DNA from: Acidimicrobiales bacterium
GTDB lineage: Bacteria > Patescibacteriota > Minisyncoccia > Phycocordibacterales > UBA918
Reading direction: 5' to 3'
Assembly (NCBI GenBank): GCA_047638595.1
Contig: JBLIMJ010000002.1
Coordinates: 640 to 64,639 of the forward strand
DNA length: 64,000 nt
This document shows, in pieces, positions 18,586-43,895 of the stretch; position 1 is the stretch's first letter; every line of letters starts with the position of its first letter. The position numbers and the translations under genes were made by a program. Under the pieces are notes generated by a model that saw only the letters and a program-made list of their open reading frames with translations, had not been told where the DNA came from and searched no databases.

Positions 18586-18662
18586 CAGGATCTGTTCAGG
18601 TTATCGCTATTTTTACTAAGGTAAAAATAGCTGGTAACCTTCATTAAGACCTCACGAAGAAT
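18586..18662. repeat. copy A of 77-bp structured element (contains GCTATTTTTAC-TAAG-GTAAAAATAGC hairpin) downstream of fusA
   Basis: identical to 18694-18771. Confidence 0.8.
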
Positions 18663-18693
18663 ACTCCTCTGTTTCTTCGGTCTTTTAATCCTT
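18663..18693 (-). pseudogene. duplicated, frameshifted remnant of the fusA 3-prime end
   Basis: ctcctctgtttcttcggtcttttaatcc versus the true 3-prime end at 18807-18833 (cttctgtttcttcggtcttaatgcc). Confidence 0.6.
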
Positions 18694-18771
18694 ACAGGAT
18701 CTGTTCAGGTTATCGCTATTTTTACTAAGGTAAAAATAGCTGGTAACCTTCATTAAGACCTCACGAAGAAT
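18694..18771. repeat. copy B of the 77-bp element
   Basis: identical to copy A. Confidence 0.8.
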
Positions 18772-18806
18772 AAAAATAAGGCACCCTGCGGGGTGCCTTA
18801 TTTTTA
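18772..18806 (-). terminator. fusA intrinsic terminator AAGGCACCC-TGCG-GGGTGCCTT with flanking A/T runs (bidirectional)
   Basis: abuts fusA stop codon. Confidence 0.7.
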
Positions 18807-20993
18807 TTCTTCTGTTTCTTCGGTCTTAATGCCTCTCGCTGCTTTAATTTCGGCAGCGACATTTGGTGGTACTACTTCGTAGTGGTCAAATTCCATAGTC
18901 ATTGAGGCGCGTCCTTGTGTCATAGATCGTAGTGAGTTTGTGTATCCGAACATTTCAGAGAGTGGTACTTTCGCATTTACGATAGTCTTTCCTCCGAGTT
19001 CTTCAGAACCTTCAACCTGTCCACGCTTAGAAGAAATGTTTCCATTTACGTCTCCTAAGTATTCTTCTGGTGTTCGTACTTCAACCTTCATCACCGGTTC
19101 AAGGAGTACTGCGCTTGCACGCTTGGAAGCTTCTTTAAATGCATTGATTCCTGCAAGTTTGAAGGCGATTTCACTTGAGTCCACGTCATGGTATGAACCA
19201 TCGTAAAGCTCAATTGATACATCTTCCATCTTGTATCCAGCAACCTGCCCTCTCGCCATAGCTTCCTTACACCCTTTCATTACTGGAACAATGTATTCCT
19301 GTGGAATCACACCTCCCTTAATACTATTGATGAATTCGAAATGGTCTTCTCGCGTTACATTCTTTGCAAGCTTCTTTGGTTCACCATCCTCATCTAACTC
19401 TAGTGCTTCAAGCGGCTTGATTCGAATCTTCACGTGACCGTATTGCCCACGTCCACCTGACTGCTTGATGTACTTGTGTTCTGCTTCGGCCTCTCGTTGG
19501 ATTGTTTCTCGGTATGCTACTTGTGGCTTACCAATATCCGCTTCAACACCAAACTCTCGTTTCATTCGGTCAACAAGAATGTCGAGGTGAAGCTCACCCA
19601 TACCAGCAATAATAGTTTCAAGTGTTTCAGGATCAGAAGATACCTTAAATGTAGGGTCTTCATCAGAAAGTCGTTTAAGTGCCATTCCCATTTTTTCCTG
19701 GTCTTGCTTTGTTTTAGGCTCTACACGCACTGCAACCACTGGTTCAGGGAACGTAATAGTTTCAAGGAGCATCGGTGCATCCACATCACAAAGTGTATGT
19801 GAAGTTTTTACTTCTTTAATTCCTACCGCTGCAGCAATCTCTCCTGCGTACACTTCATCCACCTCTTCTCGTTTGTCTGCCATAAGTCGTACGATTCGTC
19901 CTACTCGTTCTTTGTTTCCAGTAGATGAGTTCATGATGTATGTCCCAGACTTCATCGTACCTGAATACACACGGAAGAATGCAAGTTGCCCCACAAACTT
20001 ATCGTCTTGTAGTTTGAACACAAGAGCGCTCAATGGTTCATCATCAGAAGGTTTCCGTGTGATGACAGTTTCTTCATCTTTGATGTCAGTTCCTTGAATA
20101 TCAGGAAGATCAAGTGGAGACGGGAGGTAGTCAACCACAGCATCAAGTACAAGTTGTACACCGATGTTCTGCAATGCAGTACCGGCCATAACAGGGAAGA
20201 TTTCATTTGCGAGCACCGCAACACGAAGTACTCGTTTCAAGTCTTCGTTTGAAGGTTCATTTCCTTCAAGAAAAGCTTCCATAAGCGCATCATCATGCTC
20301 CACAACTCGTTCAACAAGTTCCGCTCGACGTGCTACTGCTTCTGCAACAAACTCTTCAGGAATGTCCGCTTCAGTAACATCTGTTCCCATTTCTCCTGAA
20401 AAAGAGTACGATTTCATAGTGATAAGGTCTACCACTCCACGCATGTCATTTTCTGCCCCCATAGGAATCTGGATTCGGCACGCTTTCTTTGAAAGACGTT
20501 CTTCGATAGATTTAACCGCAGCATCGTAGTCAGCTCCCATTTTGTCCATCTTGTTTACAAAACAGATTCGTGGCACTGCAGCTTCGTCAGCATACCCCCA
20601 GTTTGTTTCAGTCTGTGGCTCTACACCAGCAGCACCATCAAATACCACAACCGCACCATCAAGTACACGCATAGAACGCTTTACCTCTGCAGTAAAGTCG
20701 ATGTGACCTGGAGTATCAATAATGTTAAAGGTGAACTTTTTATCGTTATTGTCTCGATCTGTTTCTAGTGTTTTTGACCAGTTACAAGAAATAGCAGCAG
20801 AAGTAATAGTAATACCACGCTCTCGTTCTTGGTCCATCCAGTCAGTGACTGTTTCACCGTCGTGAACTTCACCAATCTTATGACTCATTCCTGTATAGAA
20901 AAGAATTCGTTCAGATGTAGTTGTTTTACCAGCATCAACGTGCGCAACAATACCGAAGTTACGTAGTCGATCTAGTGGAAATGCTCGTGCCAT
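18804..20993 (-). CDS. fusA: elongation factor G
   Basis: 729 aa; AHVDAGKTTT, DTPGHIDF, NKMD. Confidence 0.97.
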   Translation of the reverse strand: MARAFPLDRLRNFGIVAHVDAGKTTTSERILFYTGMSHKIGEVHDGETVTDWMDQERERGITITSAAISCNWSKTLETDRDNNDKKFTFNIIDTPGHIDFTAEVKRSMRVLDGAVVVFDGAAGVEPQTETNWGYADEAAVPRICFVNKMDKMGADYDAAVKSIEERLSKKACRIQIPMGAENDMRGVVDLITMKSYSFSGEMGTDVTEADIPEEFVAEAVARRAELVERVVEHDDALMEAFLEGNEPSNEDLKRVLRVAVLANEIFPVMAGTALQNIGVQLVLDAVVDYLPSPLDLPDIQGTDIKDEETVITRKPSDDEPLSALVFKLQDDKFVGQLAFFRVYSGTMKSGTYIMNSSTGNKERVGRIVRLMADKREEVDEVYAGEIAAAVGIKEVKTSHTLCDVDAPMLLETITFPEPVVAVRVEPKTKQDQEKMGMALKRLSDEDPTFKVSSDPETLETIIAGMGELHLDILVDRMKREFGVEADIGKPQVAYRETIQREAEAEHKYIKQSGGRGQYGHVKIRIKPLEALELDEDGEPKKLAKNVTREDHFEFINSIKGGVIPQEYIVPVMKGCKEAMARGQVAGYKMEDVSIELYDGSYHDVDSSEIAFKLAGINAFKEASKRASAVLLEPVMKVEVRTPEEYLGDVNGNISSKRGQVEGSEELGGKTIVNAKVPLSEMFGYTNSLRSMTQGRASMTMEFDHYEVVPPNVAAEIKAARGIKTEETEE

Positions 20994-21338
20994 AATAATG
21001 TTAAATATGTGTGTAAATAATAAATCACGTAAAAAATAACTCTTACGCGCCTCCCTTCACCTTTTCATATACATATATATGTATTTCGTCGGAGAAAGTA
21101 ATTGTCCAAGGACAAAGTGCGAGTACTATACGGCATTTATCCCATTTAAGCAACGAAATAATACCCTTAAATGACCACTTAAAGCGAAGCTTTTAAGTGG
21201 TCAATTATGTGCAACATACATCCCAATACCTTTGGTTTAGGATGAATATTGACTTTTATACTAAAATATGATATAATACAAATAGGTTAAGGGAACGAAT
21301 ATTCACTTCGTTTTCACCCCGAGCAACAGGAGATCATC

Positions 21339-21779
21339 ATGATTCGCTCAATTGTACTTTCTATCACTATCTTCCTTGGCCTGTCTGGCCAGACTTACGC
21401 ACAGAGCATATCTGAAGCAGACATGGAAACGTCTTTCAACACCGGAAAGATGGTCGACAGCCGTATCGTCGATCAAGAATTTACTCGCATTGGTGGCACG
21501 GTGCCGCTCATGCTGGTCATGTTCGAAGATCCGAACGTAGCAGAACTCGAAAAGCTTTGTCTCGATGTCTGCATTTTTGAATTCACTGCCGTTGAGGGCG
21601 ATATGATGCTATCAGGCATCAAGGCAAATCCCGACGACATGCTGGATCTTCACATCTACAAAGCGTACATGGCCCTGCGTCACGTCGAGGCTCATGACAC
21701 AGGTAGTTTTTTCCACCAAGTGAGGAAGATTGCGAGGGGAAACCCTAGCATCCTTGTCGTGCGAGAGCCAAACAGCTAA
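21339..21779 (+). CDS. hypothetical secreted protein (signal peptide)
   Basis: MIRSIVLSITIFLGLSGQTYAQ. Confidence 0.5.
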   Translation: MIRSIVLSITIFLGLSGQTYAQSISEADMETSFNTGKMVDSRIVDQEFTRIGGTVPLMLVMFEDPNVAELEKLCLDVCIFEFTAVEGDMMLSGIKANPDDMLDLHIYKAYMALRHVEAHDTGSFFHQVRKIARGNPSILVVREPNS

Positions 21780-21933
21780 ATAATTGACAGGGCGGCCAGC
21801 GGCCGTTCTGTCACAACACGCGCTGTGTTTTCTAAAAAGAAAACCTCTGCGTGTTTTCTTTTAGATATGACATCGCATACCTTGACTTTATATAAAAATA
21901 TGTTATTGTATTCTTCTCAAATAGAGAAACGTT

Positions 21934-22512
21934 ATGAAACACATCATCAATCCCTTCACTTATTTACGTGAGGCATACACAGCTGCCCTCCAATCCTTTG
22001 AGTCAGAAGTTTCTCGAAGTTTTGCAGTGACTGCAACAGTGCTTATCCCTGTTTTTGTCGTACTCTTATTCTCTTCAACACTCACTAGTGCCGCACTCTA
22101 TGTATTCCCTGCGAAAACCGTAGACATCCAAGCGATACAAATTGATGTAAATACAGTTGAAATTACCCTCCAAGGTAATCAAACACTTTTAAATGCTGCA
22201 GAAGTAGAGTTTTATTTTGACCCGACATACGTACATGTATATGACGTGAGGCTATCGGAAAGCCTTTGCGAAGAACAATTTATCATTACAAAAGAAGTCG
22301 ACAACATTACTGGTCGTATCTTCTACCAGTGTGGGACAGTGACTCCATTTGCGGGACAAGATACAACCATTGCAACACTGAAAGTTATTCCGCTAAAAGT
22401 TGGTACTTCACCACTTTCATTTGGAAGCAATACAAACGTACTTGCACATGACGGATATGGCTCAAACGTCACCAAAGATCGTCTTGCAAGCATCTTCCAG
22501 TTCTCTGACTAA
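21934..22512 (+). CDS. hypothetical membrane-anchored protein
   Basis: N-terminal TM helix; ORF. Confidence 0.5.
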   Translation: MKHIINPFTYLREAYTAALQSFESEVSRSFAVTATVLIPVFVVLLFSSTLTSAALYVFPAKTVDIQAIQIDVNTVEITLQGNQTLLNAAEVEFYFDPTYVHVYDVRLSESLCEEQFIITKEVDNITGRIFYQCGTVTPFAGQDTTIATLKVIPLKVGTSPLSFGSNTNVLAHDGYGSNVTKDRLASIFQFSD

Positions 22513-22686
22513 AGAAAGCATGCAAAAACTTAAACACGTAACGGATTGCTCCGTTACGTGTTTTTTGACATCAGAAGCTTTTATTACTAGTCACAGCAAT
22601 CATCCATTCTCTGAAGTAACCAAGGTAAGATATATAAATGAGGAGTTGATGCTCCAATAAGTTCATCAAACCTGGGAGGTTTTATA

Positions 22687-23073
22687 ATGCGACATATACT
22701 TACTGCCCTTTGCTTAATGACATTTTCGTTTAGCCAGGCACACGCTGGCTCTGTGGATGAAGAATACATTTGGCTGCCAAAGGAACATACTGTGTGCATG
22801 ACACTCACTGGTCTTGAAGACACAGTCACGGAAGTGAGTTTTGCTGATTGCGGTACCATACCGTACGAAATGCGATTTAGGGTTGCGAACAAAACTGATG
22901 GGAATAATGGATTCAAACTTCTGAGTCTGGAATATATTTTTGTCGCCATTACCGAAGATGGCACAAGTATCGCATCAACAGAGATTCAAGTTCTGTACAG
23001 CATGGATCCACAACCAACTGATGATACAAGCGTATCAAAAGTATTTGTTGGTACCAAAAATATAAATCCTTAA
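22687..23073 (+). CDS. hypothetical secreted protein
   Basis: signal peptide MRHILTALCLMTFSFSQAHA. Confidence 0.5.
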   Translation: MRHILTALCLMTFSFSQAHAGSVDEEYIWLPKEHTVCMTLTGLEDTVTEVSFADCGTIPYEMRFRVANKTDGNNGFKLLSLEYIFVAITEDGTSIASTEIQVLYSMDPQPTDDTSVSKVFVGTKNINP

Positions 23074-23077
23074 ACAC

Positions 23078-23150
23078 GGAAGTGACCAAAGTAAAAATGA
23101 ATTTTTACTTTGGTCACTTCCCCTCCGCGCTTAAGCGCGGTTTTTGTTTG
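23078..23150 (+). terminator. two consecutive hairpins (21-bp stem GGAAGTGACCAAAGTAAAAAT.., then CGCGCTTAAGCGCG plus T-run)
   Basis: read from sequence. Confidence 0.65.
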
Positions 23151-23206
23151 AAAGAAATATCCCTCTCCTCCCGTATAATGAAAGTAATACTTAGTAACAA
23201 TTCTTT

Positions 23207-25288
23207 ATGAAGCAGAGCTTATACGACATAGTAGTAATCGGCGCAGGCTCAGGAGGTCTTACTACCGCAGTTGGTTTTTCCAAAGTTGGAAAGAAAGTTC
23301 TTCTTGTGGAACGTGAACATATCGGTGGAGAGTGCACTAACTCAGGGTGTATTCCAAGTAAAGCGCTTCTGCATCATGCGAAGAGTTATCATGCTGCCAA
23401 ACAGATTTCAGGACAGAGTAAAGAAGGTGAAACCTACCGTACAGAAGCATTCAACTACGTGCGAGACAAAGTAAATAGTATCCTTGAAGAAGAAACGCCT
23501 GAAACATTTGAAAAACTGGGTATTGATGTAGTCATGGGGGAAGCCGTGTTTCATACAAAGTGTTCAATCAAGGTAAATGGCACAACCTACGGGTATAAAA
23601 AAGCTATCATCGCCACCGGCTCCTCCCCACAAATGATCAAAGTCGAAGGACTTAAGACATCGGATGTCTTAAGTAATCAAAATATCTTTGAGTTGGACGA
23701 TGTGCCGAAGAAACTCCTTATCATCGGTTCAGGACCAATCGGAATGGAGATGGGGCAAGCTTTTGCAATGCTCGGAAGTAAGGTGACTATTGCAAGTATC
23801 GATAGTCGTTTCGCACGACTTGAAGATGATTCTATTTCACCAATCATTCAAGCTGAGTTTGAAAAACTTGGTATAGATATTCATCTTAATGCATTTATTC
23901 AAAAGGTGGAAAGTGACGAGGCTGTTTTCGAGCTGAAAGAGAACGATGAAGTAACTGGTGAAGTTACAGTGCCATTCGATAAAGTACTTATCGCCATCGG
24001 CCGAGTGCCGAACCTCCCAGAAGGCTTGGAGATTGCTGGAATCAAGTCAGAGTCGTACGGTATAGTCGTCGACAAGCAACACCGTACCAGCAATAAACAT
24101 GTCTATGCGGTAGGTGACGTCGCGCAGAAACTGAAATTCACTCACACTGCTGACGACATTGGGAGACAGGTGGTCATGCATGTCCTTAGTAAAGGATGGG
24201 TACGTTTAAATACTAAAAAAGCAGTACCTAAAGTTACCTACACAAAACCCGAGATGGCCCAAGTCGGTCTTTCTCACACAGCAGCGTTAGAAAAATATTC
24301 TGCGCAAGAAATAATGCGTATCGAAGTACCGTACACAGCAAACCATCGCGCAAACACCGACAATGAGACTGATGGTCTAATGATTGTCATCGCACGGCGA
24401 TTGAATGGTGCCGTACTTGGAGCACATATCATCGGCGTATCTTCCGGAGAAATGATTTCTGTTTTTACACTCGCTATCGACCGCAAGATTTCCATGTGGC
24501 AACTACGGCGAATTATCTTCGCCTACCCTACCTACTGCCTTCTGATTAAAAAAGCAGGTGACTATTTCTTTGCACAACAAATTGCATCACTGAAAAATGA
24601 TTTATTATATCAATTCAAAAAACATGCACCAAAAATAATTGCACTCATCTTTTGGGGAACTATCCTCTATACATTCCAACAGTATCGAATCGATAACAAT
24701 CTTTCATATCAAGCCATACTATTGCAAGGGCTTCACTTCTTTACGAGCACCATGTACGGACCGTTGGTATACATGGGACTCTACGCCATTCGTCCAATCA
24801 TCCTCTTCCCTGCAACACTTCTCACCGCACTCTCTGGGGCACTGTTTGGTTTCTGGTGGGGTATCGCGTACACCATCTTGGGAGAAAATGCTTCCGCAAA
24901 CTTCGCATACTGGATTGGTCGTTTCTTCGGCAAAGACTTACGCCTTGAAGACTCACTCATTGGCAACTGGGTAGAAGCACTACGAAAAAATGGTTTTGGG
25001 ACAGTGCTCCTTATGCGTCTTTTTTATGTGCCATTTGATCTGACTAACTATGGTTCTGGTATTGTGAAAGTGAAATGGAGTAAATATGCATTAGCAACTG
25101 TCATCGGCATCATGCCAGGACTCACAACCTTTGTTGCACTTGGTGCTGCTGTCGATATAGAAGAGTTTCAAATGAATGGTCTCACCTTCGATGCCCTTGA
25201 CCCAAAATTCCTCGCTCTTTCAGCAACAATATTCATCGTTTCGTTGCTACTTTCAAAATTCTTAAAGTATTGGAGAGCAAAACTATAA
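23207..25288 (+). CDS. bifunctional protein: N-terminal class-I FAD-dependent pyridine nucleotide-disulfide oxidoreductase (about 450 aa, CTNSGC redox disulfide, dihydrolipoamide dehydrogenase/mercuric-reductase-like) fused to C-terminal DedA/TVP38-TMEM64 membrane domain
   Basis: GAGSGGLT, GGECTNSGCIPSK, NADH-binding GSGPIGME, dimerisation domain; C-terminal 6 TM with DedA-like signature. Confidence 0.8.
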   Translation: MKQSLYDIVVIGAGSGGLTTAVGFSKVGKKVLLVEREHIGGECTNSGCIPSKALLHHAKSYHAAKQISGQSKEGETYRTEAFNYVRDKVNSILEEETPETFEKLGIDVVMGEAVFHTKCSIKVNGTTYGYKKAIIATGSSPQMIKVEGLKTSDVLSNQNIFELDDVPKKLLIIGSGPIGMEMGQAFAMLGSKVTIASIDSRFARLEDDSISPIIQAEFEKLGIDIHLNAFIQKVESDEAVFELKENDEVTGEVTVPFDKVLIAIGRVPNLPEGLEIAGIKSESYGIVVDKQHRTSNKHVYAVGDVAQKLKFTHTADDIGRQVVMHVLSKGWVRLNTKKAVPKVTYTKPEMAQVGLSHTAALEKYSAQEIMRIEVPYTANHRANTDNETDGLMIVIARRLNGAVLGAHIIGVSSGEMISVFTLAIDRKISMWQLRRIIFAYPTYCLLIKKAGDYFFAQQIASLKNDLLYQFKKHAPKIIALIFWGTILYTFQQYRIDNNLSYQAILLQGLHFFTSTMYGPLVYMGLYAIRPIILFPATLLTALSGALFGFWWGIAYTILGENASANFAYWIGRFFGKDLRLEDSLIGNWVEALRKNGFGTVLLMRLFYVPFDLTNYGSGIVKVKWSKYALATVIGIMPGLTTFVALGAAVDIEEFQMNGLTFDALDPKFLALSATIFIVSLLLSKFLKYWRAKL

Positions 25289-25352
25289 ACACAACATATA
25301 CCATAAAGGACGGAGAACACATCTCCGTCCTTTATTTTCAGAAACTGCTCAA

Positions 25353-25715
25353 TTAAGCAACTGGCCAGACTTTCCCTGAAATAACCCAAAAAGTACCTCC
25401 GATAATTCCTAGGATTAATATAAAACCTATAACTGCAAGTGTTATTCCTAAAACACTATGCTTTCTTTTTTTAGGTTCAGACTGTGCACTTTTAATGTCA
25501 CCTCCCTCAACAGTTTTTTCTGCTTCATTTTCTGTCTGTGCAGGTGCAGAGGTATCGGCCTCTACAGCAAAATCGTTACACGCTGTATACACGAGTTTAA
25601 TTTCTTCATCGGAATAGCCGGCTTCATGAAGTTCAGCTTGTATTTTTTCGTACGGGTATCCTATTTCGATACGTTCACGTACAGCATTTAATAATTGTGG
25701 ATCCAAGTCATTCAT
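25353..25715 (-). CDS. hypothetical protein with C-terminal TM anchor
   Basis: ORF. Confidence 0.45.
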   Translation of the reverse strand: MNDLDPQLLNAVRERIEIGYPYEKIQAELHEAGYSDEEIKLVYTACNDFAVEADTSAPAQTENEAEKTVEGGDIKSAQSEPKKRKHSVLGITLAVIGFILILGIIGGTFWVISGKVWPVA

Positions 25716-25784
25716 ATCTAATATTATGCCACACTAATGTACTGAGCTTCTATTTTATAAACAGAAACATAACCATCTAATCCT

Positions 25785-25816
25785 CAATGACAATTCTTTC
25801 TCGTTTTTCATCGACA
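25785..25816 (-). repeat. remote duplicate of the 3-prime end (last 12 codons and stop) of the AbrB-like gene at 26703-26888
   Basis: tcaatgacaattctttCtcgtttttcatcgac versus tcaatgacaattctttTtcgtttttcatcgac at 26719-26750; encodes VDEKRERIVIED*. Confidence 0.75.
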
Positions 25817-25924
25817 CTCTATTATTCTTCATAGCACTCAAGCCTGGGCAGACAGGCTATAATCCTTGACAATATTCATTTTGATTATATATTAGATTTG
25901 GAAGTATCATAGAAAGGAACTCCG

Positions 25925-26524
25925 ATGGGAACAGATCACAGCAACAGACCAAACATTCTCGACAACTTGATGGATCGCAGGACAATTGTGCTTGCCGATA
26001 AGATTACAAGTAAATCAATCGGCGAGATCTGCAATCAAATTCTGACTTTGCAGACAATCTCAAATGATGAAATATTTCTAATCATCCAAAGTGGTGGTGG
26101 TAATACGCACTCAGCACTGACCATGTGCGATATGATGACACATCTCATCACTGCACCGATTACTGGTATTGCACTTGGTGATTGCCACTCGGCTGCAACT
26201 TTCATCATGTTACATTGCGATACACGTATCGCTTTACCGCATGCAAAATTCATTATCCATTCTGGCACAATTAGTGGCGTCTCAACCCGCATGGATGATG
26301 CCGCGGAAGAAGAAGTGAAACATCTTCTTCAAGACATCCAGAGAACCTCAAAGGAGGTTGTGAAGGTTTATATGGATAGGCTTGGCAAAAGTAAGGCCCA
26401 AGTCGAAGCAATCATTGCTCGAGGTGACCAATCCTTCGACAACGCCCTTTCTGCAGAAGATGCCATGAAAATTGGTCTTGTTCAAAAAATCCAGACGGGG
26501 AAACTTCCCATATTTGGTAAATGA
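25925..26524 (+). CDS. ClpP-family serine protease paralog (divergent; Ser/His/Asp positions appear conserved)
   Basis: aligns with canonical ClpP at 60571: GDCHSAATF versus [15 protein letters not shown] versus MIHQPS; RTIVLAD..I..QIL..L. Confidence 0.65.
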   Translation: MGTDHSNRPNILDNLMDRRTIVLADKITSKSIGEICNQILTLQTISNDEIFLIIQSGGGNTHSALTMCDMMTHLITAPITGIALGDCHSAATFIMLHCDTRIALPHAKFIIHSGTISGVSTRMDDAAEEEVKHLLQDIQRTSKEVVKVYMDRLGKSKAQVEAIIARGDQSFDNALSAEDAMKIGLVQKIQTGKLPIFGK

Positions 26525-26544
26525 TTCTACCGAGGATTGAGAAT

Positions 26545-26570
26545 CCCGCGTTAAAGGCGGGGTTTTTTCT
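26545..26570 (+). terminator. CCCGCG-TTAAAG-GCGGGG plus TTTTTTCTTTT
   Basis: read from sequence. Confidence 0.65.
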
Positions 26571-26650
26571 TTTCCCTATCAAAGATACTAAAAGGATTGG
26601 GATTTATGCATACGTTTAGAAAATCATATAAGCACAATACATAATATCTC

Positions 26651-26688
26651 AAATACCTATCATACGATTAATCGTATGATAGGTATTT
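26651..26688. promoter_or_regulatory. perfect 17-bp-arm palindrome AAATACCTATCATACGA-TTAA-TCGTATGATAGGTATTT just 3-prime of the AbrB-like gene
   Basis: read from sequence; terminator or operator. Confidence 0.5.
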
Positions 26689-26702
26689 GTCTTTAAATAT
26701 CT

Positions 26703-26888
26703 TTACCCTACCCAATCTTCAATGACAATTCTTTTTCGTTTTTCATCGACGGTAATCTGCAGCTTTTGTTTTGACTGCCAGCGAAATAGACGCACTGCTT
26801 CTAAGGGGAGTGTGACGCTATAACTTTTTCCATTTGAAATTTTATTTAAAGACCGCACATTCTCTTCCCCTACCTTTCTTCGCGCCAT
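26703..26888 (-). CDS. AbrB/MazE/SpoVT-family swapped-hairpin DNA-binding protein (antitoxin-like, 61 aa)
   Basis: KSYSVTLPLEAVRLF..KLQITVDEKRKRIVIE pattern. Confidence 0.55.
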   Translation of the reverse strand: MARRKVGEENVRSLNKISNGKSYSVTLPLEAVRLFRWQSKQKLQITVDEKRKRIVIEDWVG

Positions 26889-27091
26889 AATAGTTTCATT
26901 ACACTTAATACATACATAGTATACCGTATCTTATAGAGAATCCTTGCTTTTATCCTTGTATTAAAGCAAGGATTCTTCTTAATATGATGACACATGTAGT
27001 TGTAAAAATATCAAGAGTGCTCTTTTGGCTATCACCAGGAGCTTGCTGAATACAAACCAAATACAAGAAACTGACCAACGGACCAGACAAA

Positions 27092-27119
27092 AAGGCGCGC
27101 AAGGAATCTTGCGCGCCTT
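27092..27119 (-). terminator. AAGGCGCGCAAG-GAAT-CTTGCGCGCCTT, T-run on minus strand
   Basis: perfect 12-bp stem. Confidence 0.55.
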
Positions 27120-27716
27120 ATCTATATCTACACCTGTGCCTTCTTGTCTTTCTTCGGTTTTTTTACTTCTTTTTTCCGGTCGTTGCCTTTTGCCATATTT
27201 AATTAATTATTTTTTACTTTGATAAGTATACTGCATCGGTGTTTCCAACAATTTCTCCTAGGAAAGGGAGGAATTGGGAAGAAAATTCACAATATGTCTT
27301 CCAGACATTTGCTCATTTCTCTTTTGTCATAACGTTGTACTTAGTACTAATAATGTATTCCCACTATTCTACTATAAATTTTTACATTATAAAATTAAGT
27401 TGTTTTCAGAAGTTCTTCAGACACCACATCCACTTCTCCAACACAGGTCTGAATCAGATATCCTGTTCTTTATCAAAAGTAATAACCTTCGCACAAAATC
27501 TATATTCTGTGCATTTAAAAACTGTAGTGTACGATAAGCATTACCTGAGTCTCAACCGCTATCCCTATCTCCACGACCGAGATGTGCTATGTATTTTTAT
27601 ATCTTCATTTTCTATAAGATACACATCGTGATTATGACCATGTTTAATAAGCGTTATTTTAAGTTTAAGAAATATCCCGCCTGGGATATAAAAGTATTGA
27701 GTTTATTCTCCGCAAT

Positions 27717-28136
27717 CTATAGCTTACATTCTCCTCGTGTATATGAAACGACACTACCTTGCGCACATGCACTACATGCATTGCCAAAAGTTTTTGGTAT
27801 CGGGTCACAGGGGGTGTTAACACATTGAACCTCCAGAAAACCACACACAGGTGCATACTCCATAGTGCACATCTCTGCACGTTTTTGTTTATCCGTGCAA
27901 ACAACCCCAAAAGTATCTGTCTTTACAGGAGGAATCTTATCATCGGTAACAATATCAATATCCTCAACGAGTGTTGAGGTTGAGTTGGGTGCTGATGCCG
28001 GGGTTGAAGTTGAAATTGGTTCCAGTATGGAATCTGGGGATGGCATCGAGGCTGGAGATGGTGCGAAAAAGATGACTGCCAATAGTGTCAGAAAAATACC
28101 TAACACAACAATTTTCTGTAGATTTTCCATATGCAC
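27717..28136 (-). CDS. secreted/anchored small protein with C-terminal Kazal-type serine protease inhibitor-like domain
   Basis: N-terminal TM; CTMEYAPVCG..C.NTPC....TFGNACSACAQGSVVSYTRGEC cysteine spacing. Confidence 0.55.
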   Translation of the reverse strand: MHMENLQKIVVLGIFLTLLAVIFFAPSPASMPSPDSILEPISTSTPASAPNSTSTLVEDIDIVTDDKIPPVKTDTFGVVCTDKQKRAEMCTMEYAPVCGFLEVQCVNTPCDPIPKTFGNACSACAQGSVVSYTRGECKL

Positions 28137-28544
28137 AAATTATCCTCTTTTATTTTAAAAAAGCAACATGCAAAAAGGCCACAGAAATTCCGTGACCTTC
28201 TACCTAAATCGCAAATTATTAAAATTTAAAATTTAATGTGACGCAAAATAGCATCATTTATCGATAGCCTACCTCAGCTTCAATACAAGCTGTTCTGGTG
28301 AAATACACCATACCGTAACTATCTACATAATATACTTTTTGGTTAATAATCCTTGTGGTCATCTTGACTCCTTATATAGTTTGAATTATAGAAAGCCAAG
28401 GGAATCATTCCCCTATAATGAACTTTCTACTTCCTACATTACCTCTATTATTTATTTTTATCAAGCAAAACTCGTGTCAAGGGGAACCCGTGACACTCTG
28501 ATAGACAACTCAGGATGCTCTCTAGATGGATCTTGTACAGGGTG

Positions 28545-30032
28545 TTACTTCTTATCTAAATCAAGAGTCTCATCAACATGAATCTGATCTACAAAGTCTG
28601 GCACATGGGATACAAGCATCATCGCTCCTTCATAGTCATGAAGTGCTTTTGCGATTACGGGAATATGGCGGAAGTTAATATGGTTGGTTGGCTCATCAAG
28701 AATCAACAGTCCAGGTTTCAGTAGCACTAAACGTGCAAATGCTACCAATCCTTTTTGCCCTTCAGAAAGAAGTCCGATGCGTGTTTTGATAATATCTCGA
28801 TTGATTAAAAAACCAGCAGCAACTGAACGCATGTCTTCTTCAATCTTCTTGTCCATAACCTCCATCAAACAGTCAAACACCGTCTGGTCAAAGTCGAGGT
28901 TTGAGAAGTCTTGACGGTAGTACCCGATAGTAACTCCAGGGGTTACTTCCTCACCAGTTGCATGCCCTGACGCTAGTGACTCAAGTAGTGTTGTTTTTCC
29001 AATACCATTGGGACCGACTATTTGTAAGTGACGCCCGCGCTTAAGCACGAGGTCACAGGGTACATCTTTAGGGTTGTGATTACGGATTACTTTATATGAA
29101 GTAAGTTTGAGTATATCCGTAGGGATATCTGTTTGTACAGGAATAGTAAAAGAACGAATAGTTTTATCTTCTTTTCGGACGTCTACTTTATTCTCTTCAA
29201 AGTCATCAACCTTTTCACGCATACGCTTTGCGACCATACGCATACCTCCCCCCTTGTTTGCAAAGAAGTTTGCCTTGTCTTTGTTTGCCTGAATCTCTTT
29301 TTCAAGTTGTGCATTTTTTCGTTTTTCCTTGTCCACCCGTAGCGCAATCTCTTTGATTACGTCATTGTAGTTTCCATCATACTGTTCAACCGTTCTATTT
29401 TGTGTATTTAAGTACAACACTCCCTGTGTGAAAGCATTAAGGAAAGCGGAATCGTGAGAAATAACAATAACGGTCTTCCTATATTCTCGAAGGAATTCTG
29501 TAAGGTGCTCAATCCCCTCTGTATCAAGGTTGTTGGTCGGCTCATCAAGAAGAAGTACGTCTGGATTTTGAATAAGTGCAGATGCCAGGAGGAGTCGTGC
29601 TTGCTGACCGCCGGAAAAACTTCCGATGATACGCTCCTTAAATGGCGCAACCATTTCAGGGTTCTTTGGAGCAAGATTTACCACCTCAAGAATATCGTCA
29701 ATCTTTGGGTCGATATCGTACACCTTTTCCTCAAAACACTTTTCAAAAAAAGCTCGGAGTGTTAACTCTAACTCGTCACGGGGGATTGTCTGACGTGAGA
29801 TAGCAATACTTGTTCGCGGCATGATGTTGATGTCTCCCAAGTCAGGCTTAAGAACGCCGGTGATAAGCGCAAAGAGTGTACTCTTCCCTGCACCGTTTTG
29901 GCCCATGAGTGTAAATTTCGCTCCTCGGCGAACAGAAAAACTCGACTCGATAAGAATCGGCTTTGTAGCATCGTGTTCATACGATACGTCATTGAATGAT
30001 ATGAGTCCTGCAGCTTTTGACATAGTGGGCAT
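28545..30032 (-). CDS. ABC-F family ATPase (two tandem ABC domains, no TMD)
   Basis: two Walker A (GQNGAGKST, GPNGIGKTT), two LSGGQ-type signatures (FSGGQQ, LSEGQK). Confidence 0.85.
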   Translation of the reverse strand: MPTMSKAAGLISFNDVSYEHDATKPILIESSFSVRRGAKFTLMGQNGAGKSTLFALITGVLKPDLGDINIMPRTSIAISRQTIPRDELELTLRAFFEKCFEEKVYDIDPKIDDILEVVNLAPKNPEMVAPFKERIIGSFSGGQQARLLLASALIQNPDVLLLDEPTNNLDTEGIEHLTEFLREYRKTVIVISHDSAFLNAFTQGVLYLNTQNRTVEQYDGNYNDVIKEIALRVDKEKRKNAQLEKEIQANKDKANFFANKGGGMRMVAKRMREKVDDFEENKVDVRKEDKTIRSFTIPVQTDIPTDILKLTSYKVIRNHNPKDVPCDLVLKRGRHLQIVGPNGIGKTTLLESLASGHATGEEVTPGVTIGYYRQDFSNLDFDQTVFDCLMEVMDKKIEEDMRSVAAGFLINRDIIKTRIGLLSEGQKGLVAFARLVLLKPGLLILDEPTNHINFRHIPVIAKALHDYEGAMMLVSHVPDFVDQIHVDETLDLDKK

Positions 30033-30114
30033 TATCCTACCTTATTCTGATAGAAAAGAAAGGTGGCCCGCCGGAAATGTCCGGACGGGCCACAAATGTG
30101 CATGCACGCAATAA

Positions 30115-30480
30115 TTATAGTTCGGCATACGAATCTTTTTCAAGTCGTATGTAGCTACCTGTCTGATGATCAAAATCAGAAATCTCTTTATCTGAAATCC
30201 TCTCATCGGGACTGAGATCGCGCAATGCACGTATCAACAACCCTTTTGCGACAGCGACATCATCATCACCCCAGACATAGTCGATTGCATGTTGTTGAAC
30301 CTCATTTTTATCCAAGATACGGACTTCAGAGCCAACCAATGCATCGCCAACAACGCTCGAGAGACCTTCTGGTGCGGCCACAATACGGGCGTGTCTGAAA
30401 CAGACATCTACCTGAGATTCTTCAGTAGACCTAACCGCTAAGTCATCATTGGTACTGTTCGGAACTTCGGTAAAATTCAT
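30115..30480 (-). CDS. hypothetical protein
   Basis: ORF only. Confidence 0.4.
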   Translation of the reverse strand: MNFTEVPNSTNDDLAVRSTEESQVDVCFRHARIVAAPEGLSSVVGDALVGSEVRILDKNEVQQHAIDYVWGDDDVAVAKGLLIRALRDLSPDERISDKEISDFDHQTGSYIRLEKDSYAEL

Positions 30481-30542
30481 CTTACTTCCTCCCTGTGCAA
30501 ATCAGTCTGACTATACCACATATATGTCTAAAGAAAAGAGTT

Positions 30543-31010
30543 TTAACCTTCTGAAGTAATCGCGTTGATAATATCAGTAATGGTTCCGTCGGTTGATAAA
30601 TCAACGCCAATACGTTTTGAGGTATTTAGTAAGAGTGTTTCAATGCCTGCTCGAGTCACTGCACCTGCTGCACTGTGAATCAACTTTGTCTCATCGAGTT
30701 TGTGTTCAAGCTGACCTTCGATGACTATATATTCCCCAATACTTGCTTCCACTCCATCAAAGTCAGTTTCGACTAACCCCGGCAATACTTTCAGGAACAT
30801 TGCAGGCTCATACCCTTCAATAGGCATACCGATTTTTTTACGTACCTCATCTTCAAGTGTGAAGCGAAATACATCTACAACATCAGCGTTAATTCTTTCA
30901 GGCGCTTCAGCCTGCTGTTCGGTCTTCACGAGCAAATCTAACCCACCAGAAAATACAAAAATTGCATTAAAAACAATAACAAGCGCTACGACAATGAGAA
31001 CATTCTTCAT
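30543..31010 (-). CDS. hypothetical membrane-anchored/secreted protein
   Basis: N-terminal hydrophobic segment. Confidence 0.45.
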   Translation of the reverse strand: MKNVLIVVALVIVFNAIFVFSGGLDLLVKTEQQAEAPERINADVVDVFRFTLEDEVRKKIGMPIEGYEPAMFLKVLPGLVETDFDGVEASIGEYIVIEGQLEHKLDETKLIHSAAGAVTRAGIETLLLNTSKRIGVDLSTDGTITDIINAITSEG

Positions 31011-31074
31011 GCCAAAAGTATACCACTTTATAAAAAGTCACCACAGAGCGCGCCTGACAGTATATAATGTAGGT

Positions 31075-32079
31075 ATGAAATGGATGTTTTCTATTTTTTT
31101 ATTTGGTGCTTTCATATTACCTGTTTTTGCGCAGGAGTTTAATGCTGGGTTTGTCCAAGGGCTATGGTACTCAGAGGAAAACGTTTTTGCAGATAAGACA
31201 GTCCGTGTGTACGTTGCTATACGAAACAATACTGGAAGTGATCTAACAGGAACTGTTAACTTCTATGATAATGACAAAAAAATTGGGAGTTCTGAAGTAT
31301 CGGCACTTGACGGCCGTATTATTGAAAGTTGGATTGACTGGACACCAACCGCAGGAGAACATACTGTATCAGCCTCTCTTTCTCGAACAAAACTTCATGC
31401 AGTGGGCGAGAGCGCTGAAGTAGTAACGGTCACTGACTCTCTTGCTAAAGATGCGCTTATTGTAGACTTTGATACTGATGACGATGGTGTCGGGAACGAA
31501 GAAGATGTTGACGATGACGGTGACGGCATTAGTGACGCAGTAGAAAAAAGAAACGGCACTGACCCTCTTGAGTTTAATGCACCAGAGCCCGAAGCTGTTT
31601 CCACTACCGAAGAAGCTGGTTCTACTGAAGATACACAAACTAGCACAAGTACCACAGTAGCTGAGGGTATCGAACATTATCTCACCCCTTCACGAGCAGA
31701 CTCAATGCTTGGAGGAATCACCCAGTTTGTAAATACAAAGAAAAAAGACTTAGACGAATACCGTCAGTCACGCGCGGTAGCAAGAGGAACTCAAACAGAA
31801 CCAGTCCCCGAAATAACTGTAAATGAAGATGGTTTTGGTGAAATCGTCCGCTCTACTGAACAGCTTGAAAAAGAACCCCCAAAAGTCGAAAAGCCCGGAG
31901 GATTTCTCGGTGATATCATCACCTTCATCGGCACTATCTTAGGAGGTATCTACACTGGTGTCCTTGCAGCCCTCTCCTTCTACCTCGGCCACCCCGTAAT
32001 CGTCCAACTCTCTCTCCTTTTCCTTATTCTTTTCGCAATGTTCAAAGTGGCCCAAAAACTCAGCGCTCGACCACAGTAA
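31075..32079 (+). CDS. secreted, C-terminally membrane-anchored protein with thrombospondin-type-3-like Asp-rich calcium-binding repeats
   Basis: signal peptide MKWMFSIFLFGAFILPVFAQE; DTDDDGVGNEEDVDDDGDGISD; C-terminal TM. Confidence 0.6.
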   Translation: MKWMFSIFLFGAFILPVFAQEFNAGFVQGLWYSEENVFADKTVRVYVAIRNNTGSDLTGTVNFYDNDKKIGSSEVSALDGRIIESWIDWTPTAGEHTVSASLSRTKLHAVGESAEVVTVTDSLAKDALIVDFDTDDDGVGNEEDVDDDGDGISDAVEKRNGTDPLEFNAPEPEAVSTTEEAGSTEDTQTSTSTTVAEGIEHYLTPSRADSMLGGITQFVNTKKKDLDEYRQSRAVARGTQTEPVPEITVNEDGFGEIVRSTEQLEKEPPKVEKPGGFLGDIITFIGTILGGIYTGVLAALSFYLGHPVIVQLSLLFLILFAMFKVAQKLSARPQ

Positions 32080-32088
32080 TATCTAATT

Positions 32089-32691
32089 ATGAACAAATCA
32101 TTGATACAATTTATTGTAAATTTGCTGATTGTTTTTTCATTAATATTCTCCAGTGAAAATAATCTTGCTTGGATACTATATGCACTGTTTGCTGAATGGC
32201 TAGTCTTAGTTGCGATAAGTCTCCATAAAGTATATTACGTAAATGCAAACAGGCACTCATTCTTATCAGCAGACGACCATGCAAGAGTATTTTGGGCAGC
32301 AGTGGGACTTGTTAACCTATTTAGTCTTTATGCCTTCATGATTCTTTCTGCACAGTTTGCACCGTTTAATATAGGTTATCTAACATATTTGTTACCCATC
32401 AGTATCTATCTGAGACAATACTGGACATACAAAAAATATTTTATAAAGGAAGGAAAGTGGCAAGACATAACCACAGGTAGTCTCATAAAAACATTTTACC
32501 TAAACATGTTTCCATTCTGTCTGCTAGGTGTATATACAATGTTATCAGAAATGACCACGTTACCCATATTAAATATTGAACTACTCTACTTTTTGATATT
32601 TATATACTTACTGAAGTTACTAATTGAGTTACTGGAAATAAACACCACTAGCAAACCAGGACCAGTGATCATGAATAGTAAGTTACATTAA
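32089..32691 (+). CDS. hypothetical polytopic membrane protein
   Basis: 5-6 TM helices. Confidence 0.5.
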   Translation: MNKSLIQFIVNLLIVFSLIFSSENNLAWILYALFAEWLVLVAISLHKVYYVNANRHSFLSADDHARVFWAAVGLVNLFSLYAFMILSAQFAPFNIGYLTYLLPISIYLRQYWTYKKYFIKEGKWQDITTGSLIKTFYLNMFPFCLLGVYTMLSEMTTLPILNIELLYFLIFIYLLKLLIELLEINTTSKPGPVIMNSKLH

Positions 32692-32771
32692 AATAATAGT
32701 GTCGGATTTTAGTACCACAACCGCCCCTTGCAAAAGTTTTATTTCCTAAGAGAGGCTTATATTTCCACCAA

Positions 32772-33302
32772 TTATAGCGGCTGCAGAGCAGCAAATATAG
32801 TAACTGCAAACGTTCCCATAAAAATTGCCAGATATATCCATTTCCAGCTTTTCTTTGAGAACTGCTCAGGTGAGTCTTTCAAGCTTTCGTACTCACCTTC
32901 CACCTGGATACCTTGGGCAATAAGTTTTTTAAGAAATTGCACTGCAAGATAACGCTCGTTTGACACAGTCTTAAGTGCAGAAAACTGATATCTATTGTCG
33001 CTGTATTTAATAGCCAGCAACTTAGGATTAGGGTTCCACGTTGTCATCTTCCGATCAAAATCAATTTTTTTATCATAAAATGCAGAATTTCTTTTAAGAT
33101 TCTTATAGTCTTCATATACTTCAGAAAATTCTGAAGTATTAAGTAGCTTAGTTTGACCACCAATAAAAGCTGCCTTTATCTCATGAGTATCACTGCTATC
33201 AATAATTGATTCAATAGTAGTAAGTGCTGGCTGTACATATTTTTGTGGATCAGGCTTATTGTTCATCATGTCTATTCTTACAGAACTTACACAAATTGTC
33301 AC
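32772..33302 (-). CDS. hypothetical protein with C-terminal TM
   Basis: ORF. Confidence 0.45.
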   Translation of the reverse strand: MTICVSSVRIDMMNNKPDPQKYVQPALTTIESIIDSSDTHEIKAAFIGGQTKLLNTSEFSEVYEDYKNLKRNSAFYDKKIDFDRKMTTWNPNPKLLAIKYSDNRYQFSALKTVSNERYLAVQFLKKLIAQGIQVEGEYESLKDSPEQFSKKSWKWIYLAIFMGTFAVTIFAALQPL

Positions 33303-33438
33303 TATCTACCCAGACTGTCTCACTCCACCCAAACAGCTTCCTCTTAAACCAATACCCTTCAGGTTGTCTTTAAGATACTTTATATAATTAGTGAACCATT
33401 TTTTCATATTTATAGTCTGTCGAAAATTAAAAGTTTTA

Positions 33439-33657
33439 CTGGGAACTGAGATTTTTTAAACGGGACAAGGTGAGCTGGACACAGCTCAAGACCTTTTGAG
33501 GTATTTTGAAGAATGAAAAATATCCAAAATATGTACAGTTTCTGTAAGAAAAAGGCCTAGAAATTTGTGAGTCGTACTTTGGGTACGGTGAACAAATTTT
33601 TGGACCTTTTAACGTCGTCTGGTGCAGAAAATGTCTGTTACCAATGGTAAATTTCAT
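33439..33657 (-). repeat. distal copy of rpsG-downstream module (includes degraded rpsG 3-prime end HW* and hairpin-in-hairpin with GAGTCGTAC..GTACGGTGAAC)
   Basis: aligns with 33763-33900 with a 90-bp insertion. Confidence 0.7.
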
Positions 33658-33762
33658 TTTGAAATGCACCCCAGGAGTATTTCCATTTTTATAGTCACCT
33701 CGTTCCTTAAAAATTGGGCAAATAAGAGGTAGCGAACAAAAAAAACATACAGTCAAATAGTA

Positions 33763-33900
33763 AGAATGCAACCTGGGAACTGAGATTTTCAAAAGCAGAC
33801 AAGGCAAAAGGCCCAAAAATTTGCGAGCCGTACATTGGTACGGTGAACAAATTTTTGGGCCTTTTAACGCCGTCTGGTGCAGAAAATGTCTGTTACCAGG
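33763..33900 (-). repeat. proximal copy of rpsG-downstream module overlapping true rpsG stop; contains perfect 18-bp outer stem AAAAGGCCCAAAAATTTG/CAAATTTTTGGGCCTTTT (33806-33865) with inner CCGTAC-ATTG-GTACGG
   Basis: read from sequence. Confidence 0.7.
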
Positions 33901-34366
33901 CGAAGTGGGCAAATGCTCGGTTAGCCTCTGCCATCTTGTGCGTATCCTCCTTCTTCTTCACTGCAGCTCCTTCTTCTTTAGCTGCAAGCATGAGTTCTGA
34001 AGCGAGTGCCTTGAACATTGGTACGCCCTTCTGACTTCGAGAAGCCTTGATGAGTGCACGTAGTGCAAGTGCGAGTCGTCGTTCGAGACGAACTTCGCGA
34101 GGTACTTGGTAGTTTGCACCACCAACACGTCGTGACCGTACTTCCATCTGCGGACCAGCGTTTCGAACTGCTGTATCAAAGATTTCAATTGGATCACCAC
34201 CACCTTCTTTTGCATCCTTTATTACATCGAATGCTCCATACACGATTTTTCGTGCAGTTTCTTTTTGACCGTTAAGCATCACGTAGTTGATGAGTCGTTC
34301 AACATCTACTGAACCAAACTTCATGTCTGGCTTGACGATTGGTCGTTTCTTTATTGGTCGTCGCAT
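33893..34366 (-). CDS. rpsG: 30S ribosomal protein S7
   Basis: [14 protein letters not shown].. Confidence 0.93.
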
Positions 34367-34552
34367 ATTGTTATTAATTAATGCGAATGAGAAATTGGCA
34401 TAAACCTATTTTCATTCTTCGCATAGTTTGGCTCCGAACCCTTGGGAGGTTGAACCGCGTCTACTATCTGTAGCGAATATAAACTATTTGTAATTGGCCC
34501 CGGGGACACCGTCCCCCTTCTAAATCTGAAAGAAATTGTTTTCTAGCGCGGC

Positions 34553-34632
34553 AGGCAAGAAATTTTTCATGAGTCGTACGTATAGTACGGTGAATGAAAA
34601 ATTATCGAAGCCTAACAAAGCTAGGAAGCAAT
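34553..34632 (-). promoter_or_regulatory. rpsL-rpsG intercistronic structured module (ggcaggcaagaaa plus AATTTTTCAT[GAGTCGTAC-GTATA-GTACGGTGA]ATGAAAAATT)
   Basis: same family as secY/rpsG terminator modules; position matches the known S7 autoregulatory site of str operons. Confidence 0.5.
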
Positions 34633-35046
34633 TTATTCAGATTTAGGCATTTTAGCTCCGTATCGTGACCGCCCTCGTCTCCGCGCATCCACACCTGTAG
34701 CGTCGTACTTTCCTCGTACAACAGTGTAGTTCACACCAATGTCCTTCACACGTCCACCTCGTACAAGTACCACAGAGTGTTCTTGTAGAGTGTGACCAAT
34801 ACCTGGGATGTACGCTGTAATTTCCTGACCGTTTGAAAGTCGTACTCGAGCAATCTTTCGAATCGCAGAGTTCGGCTTACGCGGAGTCTTTGTAGTTACA
34901 CGTGTACACACCCCTCGCTTAAATGGCGAGTTGTATGCGGTTGGTTTGTTCTCAATTGAGTTAAAACCAGACTGAAGAGCACCAGTTTTTGACTTGGTTG
35001 CTTTATCACGTCGTCGCTTTCTTGTTAATTGATTTATTGTTGCCAT
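34633..35046 (-). CDS. rpsL: 30S ribosomal protein S12
   Basis: [10 protein letters not shown]..; PKKPNSA-like region. Confidence 0.95.
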
Positions 35047-43645: not shown

Positions 43646-43895
43646 ACAGGTGCTTTTGCTTCTTACAGTAGCTGTTCAGGTTATCAATATTTCTTTTCGG
43701 TACCTCAAGAAATATCTGGTCACCTCTTGTGACAGTCCCCCGGACTGTCTCACCTTGTGCGAGGGAGTATTCGGAACGTAATGCTGCTGCTTCCTCACTG
43801 ATACGGACTGCTTCATGTTCAAAGCATTGATAGTGACAATTCGCACTATCTAAAAGTTGCTTAATTTTCTGTACTGTTTGATTATACTCAGACAT
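43638..43895 (-). pseudogene. truncated/frameshifted tandem paralog of the YbaK-like gene (first 45 aa conserved, then frameshift)
   Basis: MSEYNQTVQKIKQLLDSANCHYQCFEHEAVRISEEAAALRSEYSLAQG versus MSSYHPVVQQIKDLLTQSSLEYKCFEHDPVRTSEEAASLRPEYSISQG; alternative frame gives RYFLRYRKE versus LILRIKKKE. Confidence 0.55.

Follow-up and report, generated by a model that had tools for sequence, protein, structure and literature searches.

Imperfect palindromes that fold into hairpins in the messenger RNA are known from the Proteobacteria, where the ERIC, REP/BIME and Neisseria Correia elements reside in transcribed spacers and 3′ untranslated regions, accommodate insertions in their interior and influence the stability and processing of the mRNA; those of the ERIC type are about 127 nt long. 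Intercistronic hairpins of shared architecture also constitute the RNase III sites in the early and late mRNAs of phage T7, where the cut leaves a stabilising 3′ hairpin upstream, and the L17 downstream element (L17DE) is a conserved structure of unknown function found after a ribosomal-protein gene. For the Patescibacteria (Candidate Phyla Radiation), most of which cannot be grown in pure culture, almost nothing is to our knowledge known about gene regulation. Here we analyse a stretch of 64,000 nucleotides from contig JBLIMJ010000002.1 (positions 640 to 64,639; referred to as the window), in which two copies of a long hairpin follow rpsG, the gene for ribosomal protein S7. Judged by their sequences, the two copies belong to a conserved family of imperfect hairpins of ~125–130 nt, which we term stop-anchored long hairpins (SLH) and which consist of an outer stem (P1) at the stop codon of the upstream gene and a core of 27 base pairs (P2–P5). 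SLH match no Rfam family (with Rfam 15, none was matched on either strand of the whole window, a permissive E-value returning chance miRNA hairpins far below threshold), and a literature search found no earlier description of such an element.

SLH share with the ERIC, REP/BIME and Correia elements the character of hairpin-forming imperfect palindromes, in the case of ERIC also of similar length, but have no sequence in common with them. Moreover, the conserved part of SLH is formed by the apex and the internal loops and not by the termini, they invariably point in the direction of the upstream gene and are anchored at its stop codon, and in the DNA examined (~240 kb, mostly around ribosomal-protein genes) they occur only next to translation-related or other housekeeping genes, namely those of ribosomal proteins, elongation factor, SecY and RNase Y. 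An assignment to REP/BIME proper (palindromes of 20–40 nt with a GTAG or CGTC head and an associated RAYT transposase) was rejected on account of the 125–130 nt length and the lack of a conserved head. The T7 RNase III hairpins resemble SLH in their intercistronic position, uniform size and conserved loops at fixed positions, yet the SLH stems are about twice as long. L17DE is likewise a conserved structure 3′ of a ribosomal-protein gene but differs in sequence, fold and phylum, and SLH are present in multiple copies after many genes. Finally, integron attC sites are imperfect palindromes of 60–140 nt which are functional as a folded single strand and display conserved unpaired bases; they carry, however, conserved RYYYAAC / GTTRRRY boxes at the base and a variable apex, the reverse of SLH, in which the apex is conserved and the base varies. 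The ends of the rpsG element (TGGTAAC / GTTCCCA) do not fit the attC boxes and neither cassette arrays nor an integrase were found, so that this candidate was discarded.

Results

The rpsG gene is located on the minus strand (33893–34366) as an open reading frame (ORF) whose translation ends with ..AFAHFAW*, and rpsL is listed at 34633–35046. The S7 protein of the window was matched by an identical protein (P0001) and by thousands of PF00177 homologues; an exact-protein look-up gave a record neither for the sequence of the window nor for P0001. Adjoining the end of rpsG, the proximal element E2p (33772–33900, minus strand) forms an intact 129-nt hairpin reaching from CCUGGUAAC.. to ..GUUCCCAGG, the two ends of which build up the outer stem P1. 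Its inner part comprises an 18-bp stem (AAAAGGCCCAAAAATTTG / CAAATTTTTGGGCCTTTT), a 3×3 internal loop (UCA/CUC) and an apical CCGUAC-loop-GUACGG hairpin. The predicted fold of the whole 129-nt module has an energy of −63.6 kcal/mol (z = −9.35), and two covariance models match E2p, R1 (built from E2) with 154 bits and the family model R2 with 108 bits (at 33773–33898). TGG TAA, the last codon and stop of rpsG (33893–33898), represents the first bases of the 5′ arm and is thus situated in the base of the hairpin. An initial annotation of this region had described the module as the end of rpsG plus a terminator. The perfect 18-bp stem, the inner CCGTAC-ATTG-GTACGG hairpin and the overlap with the true rpsG stop noted there are all recovered in E2p, but the module is one continuous hairpin with TGGTAA in its base and not a gene end followed by a terminator.

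The distal element E2d (33439–33644, minus strand), separated from E2p by 127 nt, adopts the same predicted shape (−50.8 kcal/mol, z = −4.6), with several pairs broken and an insertion (33471–33548) in the 3′ arm that protrudes as a side branch; its 5′ two thirds are matched by R2 at 33524–33643 with 53.5 bits. Folding of both copies, as proposed in the initial annotation, therefore gives whole-module hairpins. The repeat itself is real. Three collinear blocks of 62, 33 and 32 nt with 97, 85 and 84% identity link the two copies, and a 28-mer and a 22-mer of the module each occur twice in the 64 kb, compared with an expectation of 0 from shuffles. The offsets between the blocks are 255 and 256 nt in the 5′ part and 334 nt in the 3′ part, and the insertion in the distal copy therefore measures 78 nt instead of the 90 bp annotated earlier. 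Its first 19 nt match a dispersed repeat of ~65 nt (E about 0.01), while the rest is without match.

Beyond rpsG, model R1 also matched sites after rpsL, tuf, rpsJ, secY and rny in the window as well as a second hairpin type, E1, that follows rpsG in relatives (see below). With R2, 9 members were found in the window and 19 more in relatives, giving 28 in total. An alignment of 12 members, taken from different genes and genomes, is nearly free of gaps at 125–130 nt. In their core P2–P5, 24 of the 27 pairs exhibit compensatory changes and 92.3% of the alignment cells are paired, compared with 35–46% when the partners are slid against each other; none of 500 shuffles reached the observed values. 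Extension to all 28 members leaves 91.6% of the cells paired, with double changes in 25 of the 27 pairs and in 209 cells. Unpaired motifs are conserved family-wide (..CUUCGUU.., ..UCAC-CGUAC-loop-GUACG-RCUC.. and ..GCCUCG..), the apical motif being UCACCGUAC-loop-GUACGRCUC. The sense strand is recognized by R2 with 53–115 bits and the antisense strand of the same sites with ~30 bits, and all 28 members reside on the strand of the upstream gene. Loci fetched by their S7 protein and not by the element (L015–L018) contain members after rpsL, rpsG and rpmB. Members are also present in L019 and L020, which were likewise fetched by S7 and are labelled Candidatus Kaiserbacteria (83% S7 identity), and the family extends at least to genomes carrying this label.

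The position of SLH relative to the upstream gene is nearly fixed. For each of the 23 members situated immediately after a gene, the stop codon of that gene is found between −3 and +11 nt from the start of the model. P1 is locus-specific, and its 5′ arm includes the upstream stop codon and sometimes the last 3–4 codons. After rpsL, the last codons pair with a 3′ arm located some 110 nt further on: in the window, CCT AAA TCT GAA TAA is opposed (3′ to 5′) by ..GATTTAGACTT; in L017, CCT AAG AGC GAC TAA by ..GATTCTC-CT; and in L018, CCT AAG GGA GAA TAG by ..GGATTCCC-CTTA (the dash marking an unpaired position). Among the rpsL orthologues (L010, L011, L017 and L018), changes of the last codons, whether synonymous or altering the amino acid, are accompanied by changes in the 3′ arm. 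Since this arm changes together with the codons paired to it, the pairing at the stop region is kept up by selection and is no leftover of an insertion. Between genomes, the rpsL members share 56–71% identity while the fold and the loop motifs are kept, as is usual for a structure under selection.

Apart from the two rpsG copies, seven members were detected in the window. The highest R2 score (110.5 bits) belongs to that after rpsL (34520–34646, minus strand), with orthologues in the four loci mentioned above. It is followed by the members after tuf (16166–16292, minus; 104.5 bits; Pfam EF-Tu), which ends 17 nt before the start codon of rpsJ, after rpsJ (15675–15799, minus; 101.9 bits; Pfam S10), after rny, the gene of RNase Y (62953–63077, plus; 99.6 bits; Pfam RNase_Y_N, KH and HD domains), and after secY (1338–1465, minus; 88.5 bits; Pfam SecY), with a weaker, degenerate second copy near 1135–1275. 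In the member after rplF, encoding L6 (4352–4557, minus; 55.1 bits), the apex is split by an insertion of ~80 nt, and the next ORF, L18-like (rplR) by our reading of its sequence, starts 15 nt beyond the element. The last member, after an unnamed ORF cut by the window start (326–450, plus), is weak and degenerate (34 bits). A separate canonical hairpin with a T-tract succeeds the rpsJ member at 15622–15662, and a separate canonical terminator-like hairpin the rny member.

An exact 20-mer from the 5′ arm of E2 was searched in species-representative genomes (185,579), metagenomes and viral contigs. It occurred once in the former, in L001, a Patescibacteria metagenome-assembled genome entitled 'Patescibacteria group bacterium', and 13 times in metagenomes, where 10 matches are true loci representing five further distinct sequences and three (L004, L006 and L009) are chance 20-mers in coding DNA; the viral contigs gave no match. 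L002, L005 and L012 come from Hainich groundwater samples. In all but one of the true loci (L013) E2 adjoins rpsG; in total, it is found there in at least ten Patescibacteria contigs besides that of the window. The consensus structure of 8 distinct E2 copies contains 47 pairs, 9 of them changed on both sides, for example GGCCCAAAAAUUUG/CAAAUUUUUGGGCC to GGCCGGAAAAUUCG/CGAAUUUUCCGGCC; that the 5′ arm is invariant in the 20-mer set follows from the search pattern and has no weight as evidence. Two arrangements are found: E2 either begins at the rpsG stop (L001, L008, L011 and the proximal copy of the window), or the diverged hairpin E1 occupies the stop and E2 comes directly after it (L003 and L007). 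Tandem pairs are present in L003, L007 and L015, and E1 followed by E2 is the usual state after rpsG. Between the window and L011, the identities are 97% for E2 (a value raised in part by ascertainment through the search pattern), 85% for rpsG and 66% for rpsG third positions. The corresponding values are 81, 88 and 72% for L015, which was not selected by the element, and E2 and rpsG of L001 are 84.5 and 73% identical to those of the window, respectively.

The tandem after rpsG in the window is rearranged. Between E2p and E2d lie a 26-nt linker (33746–33771, minus strand; GTTGCATTC...), the GTTGCA flank of which is also found after E2 in L003, L008 and L011, and a remnant of E1 (33645–33745, minus). 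According to the alignment with E1 of L003, L007, L015 and L017, solely the 3′ half of E1 is left, from the U-tract through the 3′ arm ..CATTTCAAAATGAAATTTACCA, and it harbours a 53-nt insertion (33667–33719) in common with L017. The "..HW*" formerly read as a degraded gene end corresponds to the last bases of the 3′ arm of E1 (..TTTACCA, the complement of TGGTAAA) followed by the first bases of E2, and the rpsG bases common to both copies are confined to TGGTAA. The initial annotation was hence right in that the module is present twice, while the copies are members of a dispersed conserved family, with tandem pairs in other genomes, and not a duplication of the rpsG end with its terminator. 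It was also justified in doubting the 158-codon ORF at 33436–33912 (minus), which is a translation across the two hairpins. No Pfam family matched it, and in every relative compared stops or frame changes between the arms break the frame, so that the ORF is spurious. As a separate observation, a similarity of 17 nt (GACTATAAATATGAAAA / GACTATAAAAATGGAAA) is seen 3′ of each rpsG copy at 33401–33417 and 33680–33696 (minus); its distance from the copies differs, each occurrence has an ATG opening a short ORF, and it may be due to chance in A/T-rich DNA.

The proximal copy is 96% identical to E2 of L011 and 88% to the distal copy, which itself is about 89% identical to the copies of each L007 and L011. 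As the two copies in the window are less alike than the proximal copy and that of L011, the duplication is not recent. Past the distal copy, the genes show synteny with those of L003. We suggest an ancestral arrangement rpsG-E1-E2, in which the 5′ half of E1 would have been replaced by an L011-type E2 together with its GTTGCA flank; the old E2 would afterwards have taken up the 78-nt insertion and become the distal copy. What follows rpsG is an old rearranged tandem and no fresh duplication. Traces of rearrangement are present in relatives as well: L018 contains a fossil rpsG end (CACTTCGCTTGGTAA, about 10660–10684) 205 nt after the real stop and followed by E1, L013 a fossil rpsG end (..GCCCACTTTGCTTGGTAA, about 3775–3800) with E1-like and E2 elements beside an unrelated gene, and E2 of L017 is truncated. 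The interval between rpsG and fusA ranges in relatives from one gene to 13 kb, and the genes directly after rpsG vary between genomes; in the window, the gap from rpsL-rpsG to fusA-tuf-rpsJ (21000–33400) amounts to 13 kb. These data point to the 3′ flank of rpsG as a recombination hot spot, which would therefore account for the extra copy at rpsG. An integrative island between rpsG and fusA was considered for the window and rejected, the 13 kb downstream of rpsG being syntenic with relatives and devoid of an integrase or transposase. In the variable region of the Kaiserbacteria genome L020, a reverse-transcriptase gene (RVT_1, 245 aa; 12022–12759) is located ~1.5 kb after rpsG.

Several further features were noted in the surroundings. 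The conserved 5′ leader of rpsG (34370–34480, minus), situated between the start of that gene and the rpsL hairpin, consists of ATTCGCTACAGATAGTAGAC, a variable hairpin and AAACTATGCGAAGAATGAAAA..TTTCTCATTCGC. It is kept in the window, L011, L007, L002, L017 and L018, with L002 lacking the rpsL hairpin, and its predicted helices (UUCGC/GCGAA and AUAGU/ACUAU) include one compensatory pair; the leader is possibly a site of S7 autoregulation or a promoter region. The dispersed repeat of ~65 nt (CTTACAGAAGCTGTACAGGTTGTC..GGCAACCTCTTGC) is present at 1231–1295, 4420–4482, 43659–43729 and 18583–18721, and in L003 at 2376–2425, one copy being inverted within the apex of the rplF hairpin. An inverted-repeat scan across the window detected many perfect hairpins of 19–26 bp with A-/T-tracts at 18765–18812, which includes the fusA stop codon, at the already mentioned 15622–15662, at 6065–6105, at 58336–58387, and at 11671–11720 and 11861–11910, the latter two forming a near-identical pair 190 nt apart at 11.7–11.9 kb. 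A hairpin AAAAGACCGACAGC..GCTGTCGGTCTTTT recurs after the rpsG element of L016. The record of P0001 reads 'Acidimicrobiales bacterium', whereas the nearest relatives bearing a name belong to Candidatus Kaiserbacteria; its label is probably a binning or labelling error.

Discussion

The anatomy and conservation of SLH are well supported; their most likely role, in mRNA processing or stability, is inferred. SLH would be part of the message of the gene that they follow and would work post-transcriptionally, as structured modules at the 3′ end or between cistrons; in our view they lie behind the stop codon but ahead of the actual terminator or of the following gene. As such, they might serve as a barrier to 3′ exonucleases, as a double-strand-specific processing site, or as a binding site for a shared protein via the conserved loops. 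We favour, with moderate confidence, this overall explanation of a family anchored at stop codons and acting post-transcriptionally, with a rearranged tandem after rpsG. It is conceivable, though rather doubtful, that SLH represent a previously undescribed class of cis-acting RNA of the Patescibacteria which is read by one dedicated factor via its pyrimidine-rich loops. If true, SLH would mark the 3′ ends of genes for the translation apparatus and other highly expressed genes and indicate a shared post-transcriptional control in reduced genomes. As the stop codon is part of the hairpin base, terminating ribosomes would have to open P1, and SLH would thereby be coupled to them.

Several points weigh against a post-transcriptional role. 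The association with housekeeping genes derives from a sample biased towards ribosomal-protein regions; covariation is unable to separate RNA from single-stranded DNA; the two strands differ in their suitability for folding, as discussed below; and in several members P4–P5 looks like a bidirectional intrinsic terminator. The latter resemblance applies to E1, E2 and the secY member, in which the P4–P5 core is a G+C-rich stem between an A-tract and a U-tract, and it suggests that the rpsL-rpsG transcript might be ended by two Rho-independent terminators in tandem, produced by a local duplication that copied the rpsG end. In E2, a stem of 18+6 bp is enclosed by AAAA and UUUU, a consensus scan marks a terminator-like site at 33829–33810, and E1 of L003 and L007 contains AAAAAAACCGC..GCGGUUUUUUU. 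However, terminator-like sites are not enriched in that scan (2 found versus 1.8 expected), and SLH differ from intrinsic terminators, bidirectional ones included, by ~40 further paired positions outside the U-tract. The 3′ arms of P1–P3 lie beyond the U-tract of the core and would need read-through transcripts for pairing; nonetheless they co-vary. The stems of the rpsL and rny members are exclusively A/U-rich, and members are found within operons or upstream of a separate terminator: those of rplF and tuf precede the next start codon by 15–17 nt and so do not end a transcription unit, and a separate A-tract/stem/T-tract hairpin is present after the members of rpsJ, rny, L016-rpsG and L016-rpmB and after E2 of L001. 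These intra-operon members and separate downstream terminators make termination unlikely as the main role, and SLH are probably not the main transcription terminators. The short stretch of rpsG shared between the copies and their 88% identity, compared with the 96% between E2p and L011, also disagree with a local duplication of the gene end, and we regard tandem terminators as quite improbable.

The strand asymmetry raises the alternative that the functional strand is the complement of the mRNA, acting as antisense RNA or, in single-stranded form, as template DNA. For all 13 members compared, the complementary strand is predicted to fold better, by 3–19 kcal/mol. On the mRNA strand, 74% of the unpaired core positions are pyrimidines, and the non-Watson-Crick cells of the helices are C·U (32), A·C (21), G·U (7, plus 18 at one conserved U·G pair) and G·A (2), a pattern opposite to that usual for helices selected in that RNA. 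The sense strand of SLH is also rich in C (25%) and poor in G (15%), which sets it apart from coding sequence and from the remaining spacers. Read on the complementary strand, the non-canonical cells become G·U and G·A, the loops are 74% purine, and the apical loop turns into GAG/UGA with a possible tandem G·A. Such an asymmetry is expected if the complementary strand is the selected fold; alternatively, it may reflect purine avoidance in exposed parts of the mRNA. A possible variant is a polar block of antisense transcription into highly expressed genes that lets sense transcription pass. Nevertheless, inspection of the flanks of the elements revealed neither an antisense promoter nor a U-tract, with weak hexamer resemblances only to a promoter of an antisense transcript or of the gene downstream of E2 (e.g. 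TTGCAA..CATAAT after E2 in L008 and L011), the conserved U·G pair favours the sense strand, and members lie within co-directional operons without an obvious source of antisense transcription. Furthermore, the strand exposed as single-stranded DNA in replication and transcription is the sense strand, which also counts against a function of its complement. On balance, we consider it unlikely that the complementary strand is the functional one. The GA motifs of this strand, which are box-C/D-like, led us to consider TIGR-Tas arrays, in which tandem units, each comprising two spacers bounded by box C/D motifs, are located next to a tas gene (PMC12045711); as SLH are dispersed singly or in pairs after housekeeping genes and no array, spacer pattern or tas gene was recognized, this candidate was dropped. 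No Nop-domain gene was present among the scanned neighbours of SLH elements.

SLH might also be understood as a selfish palindromic repeat, similar to ERIC or to miniature inverted-repeat transposable elements (MITEs), that multiplies at stop codons through insertion or recombination and is no more than tolerated; the extra rpsG copy and the insertions would then be traces of mobility. The copies are indeed dispersed and of uniform length, and paralogues of the same genome share long identical stretches (CCTAGCTTTGTT.. in the rpsL and rny members). E2 of L013 is found away from rpsG beside a fossil rpsG end, the fossil end of L018 lies 205 nt after the stop, E2 of L001 is closer to the window copy than rpsG is, and the gene content after rpsG is hypervariable. 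These signs of mobility are opposed by the architecture of the elements. The P1 outer stems are locus-specific and completely different between paralogues, without conserved terminal inverted repeats; reading of the sequences revealed no direct repeats, and thus no target-site duplication, at the ends of the proximal and distal copies or of the paralogues; and insertion in either orientation, as expected for a MITE, is at variance with the 28 of 28 members on the strand of the upstream gene. A classification as MITE was rejected on these grounds. The co-evolution of P1 in place with the coding sequence, the lack of a nearby transposase and the single occurrence of the E2 20-mer among the species-representative genomes likewise speak against spreading, and we give a purely selfish element little credence. 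The fossil rpsG ends in L013 and L018 and the variable content and size of the rpsG-fusA region would fit attL/attR-like sites remaining from an integrative element directed at the 3′ end of rpsG. Such sites are highly improbable, given that the copies are only 127 nt apart, that the 13 kb downstream are without an integrase and syntenic with relatives, and that the same element follows many other genes.

For genome analysis, the recognition of SLH helps to flag the recombination hot spot next to rpsG and spurious ORF calls, such as the 158-codon ORF of the window, a 67-codon ORF in L018 and an over-extended ORF in L008. As conserved, heavily co-varying structures that are anchored at stop codons and match no Rfam family, SLH offer a tangible starting point for the study of mRNA processing or of the control of expression in the Patescibacteria.

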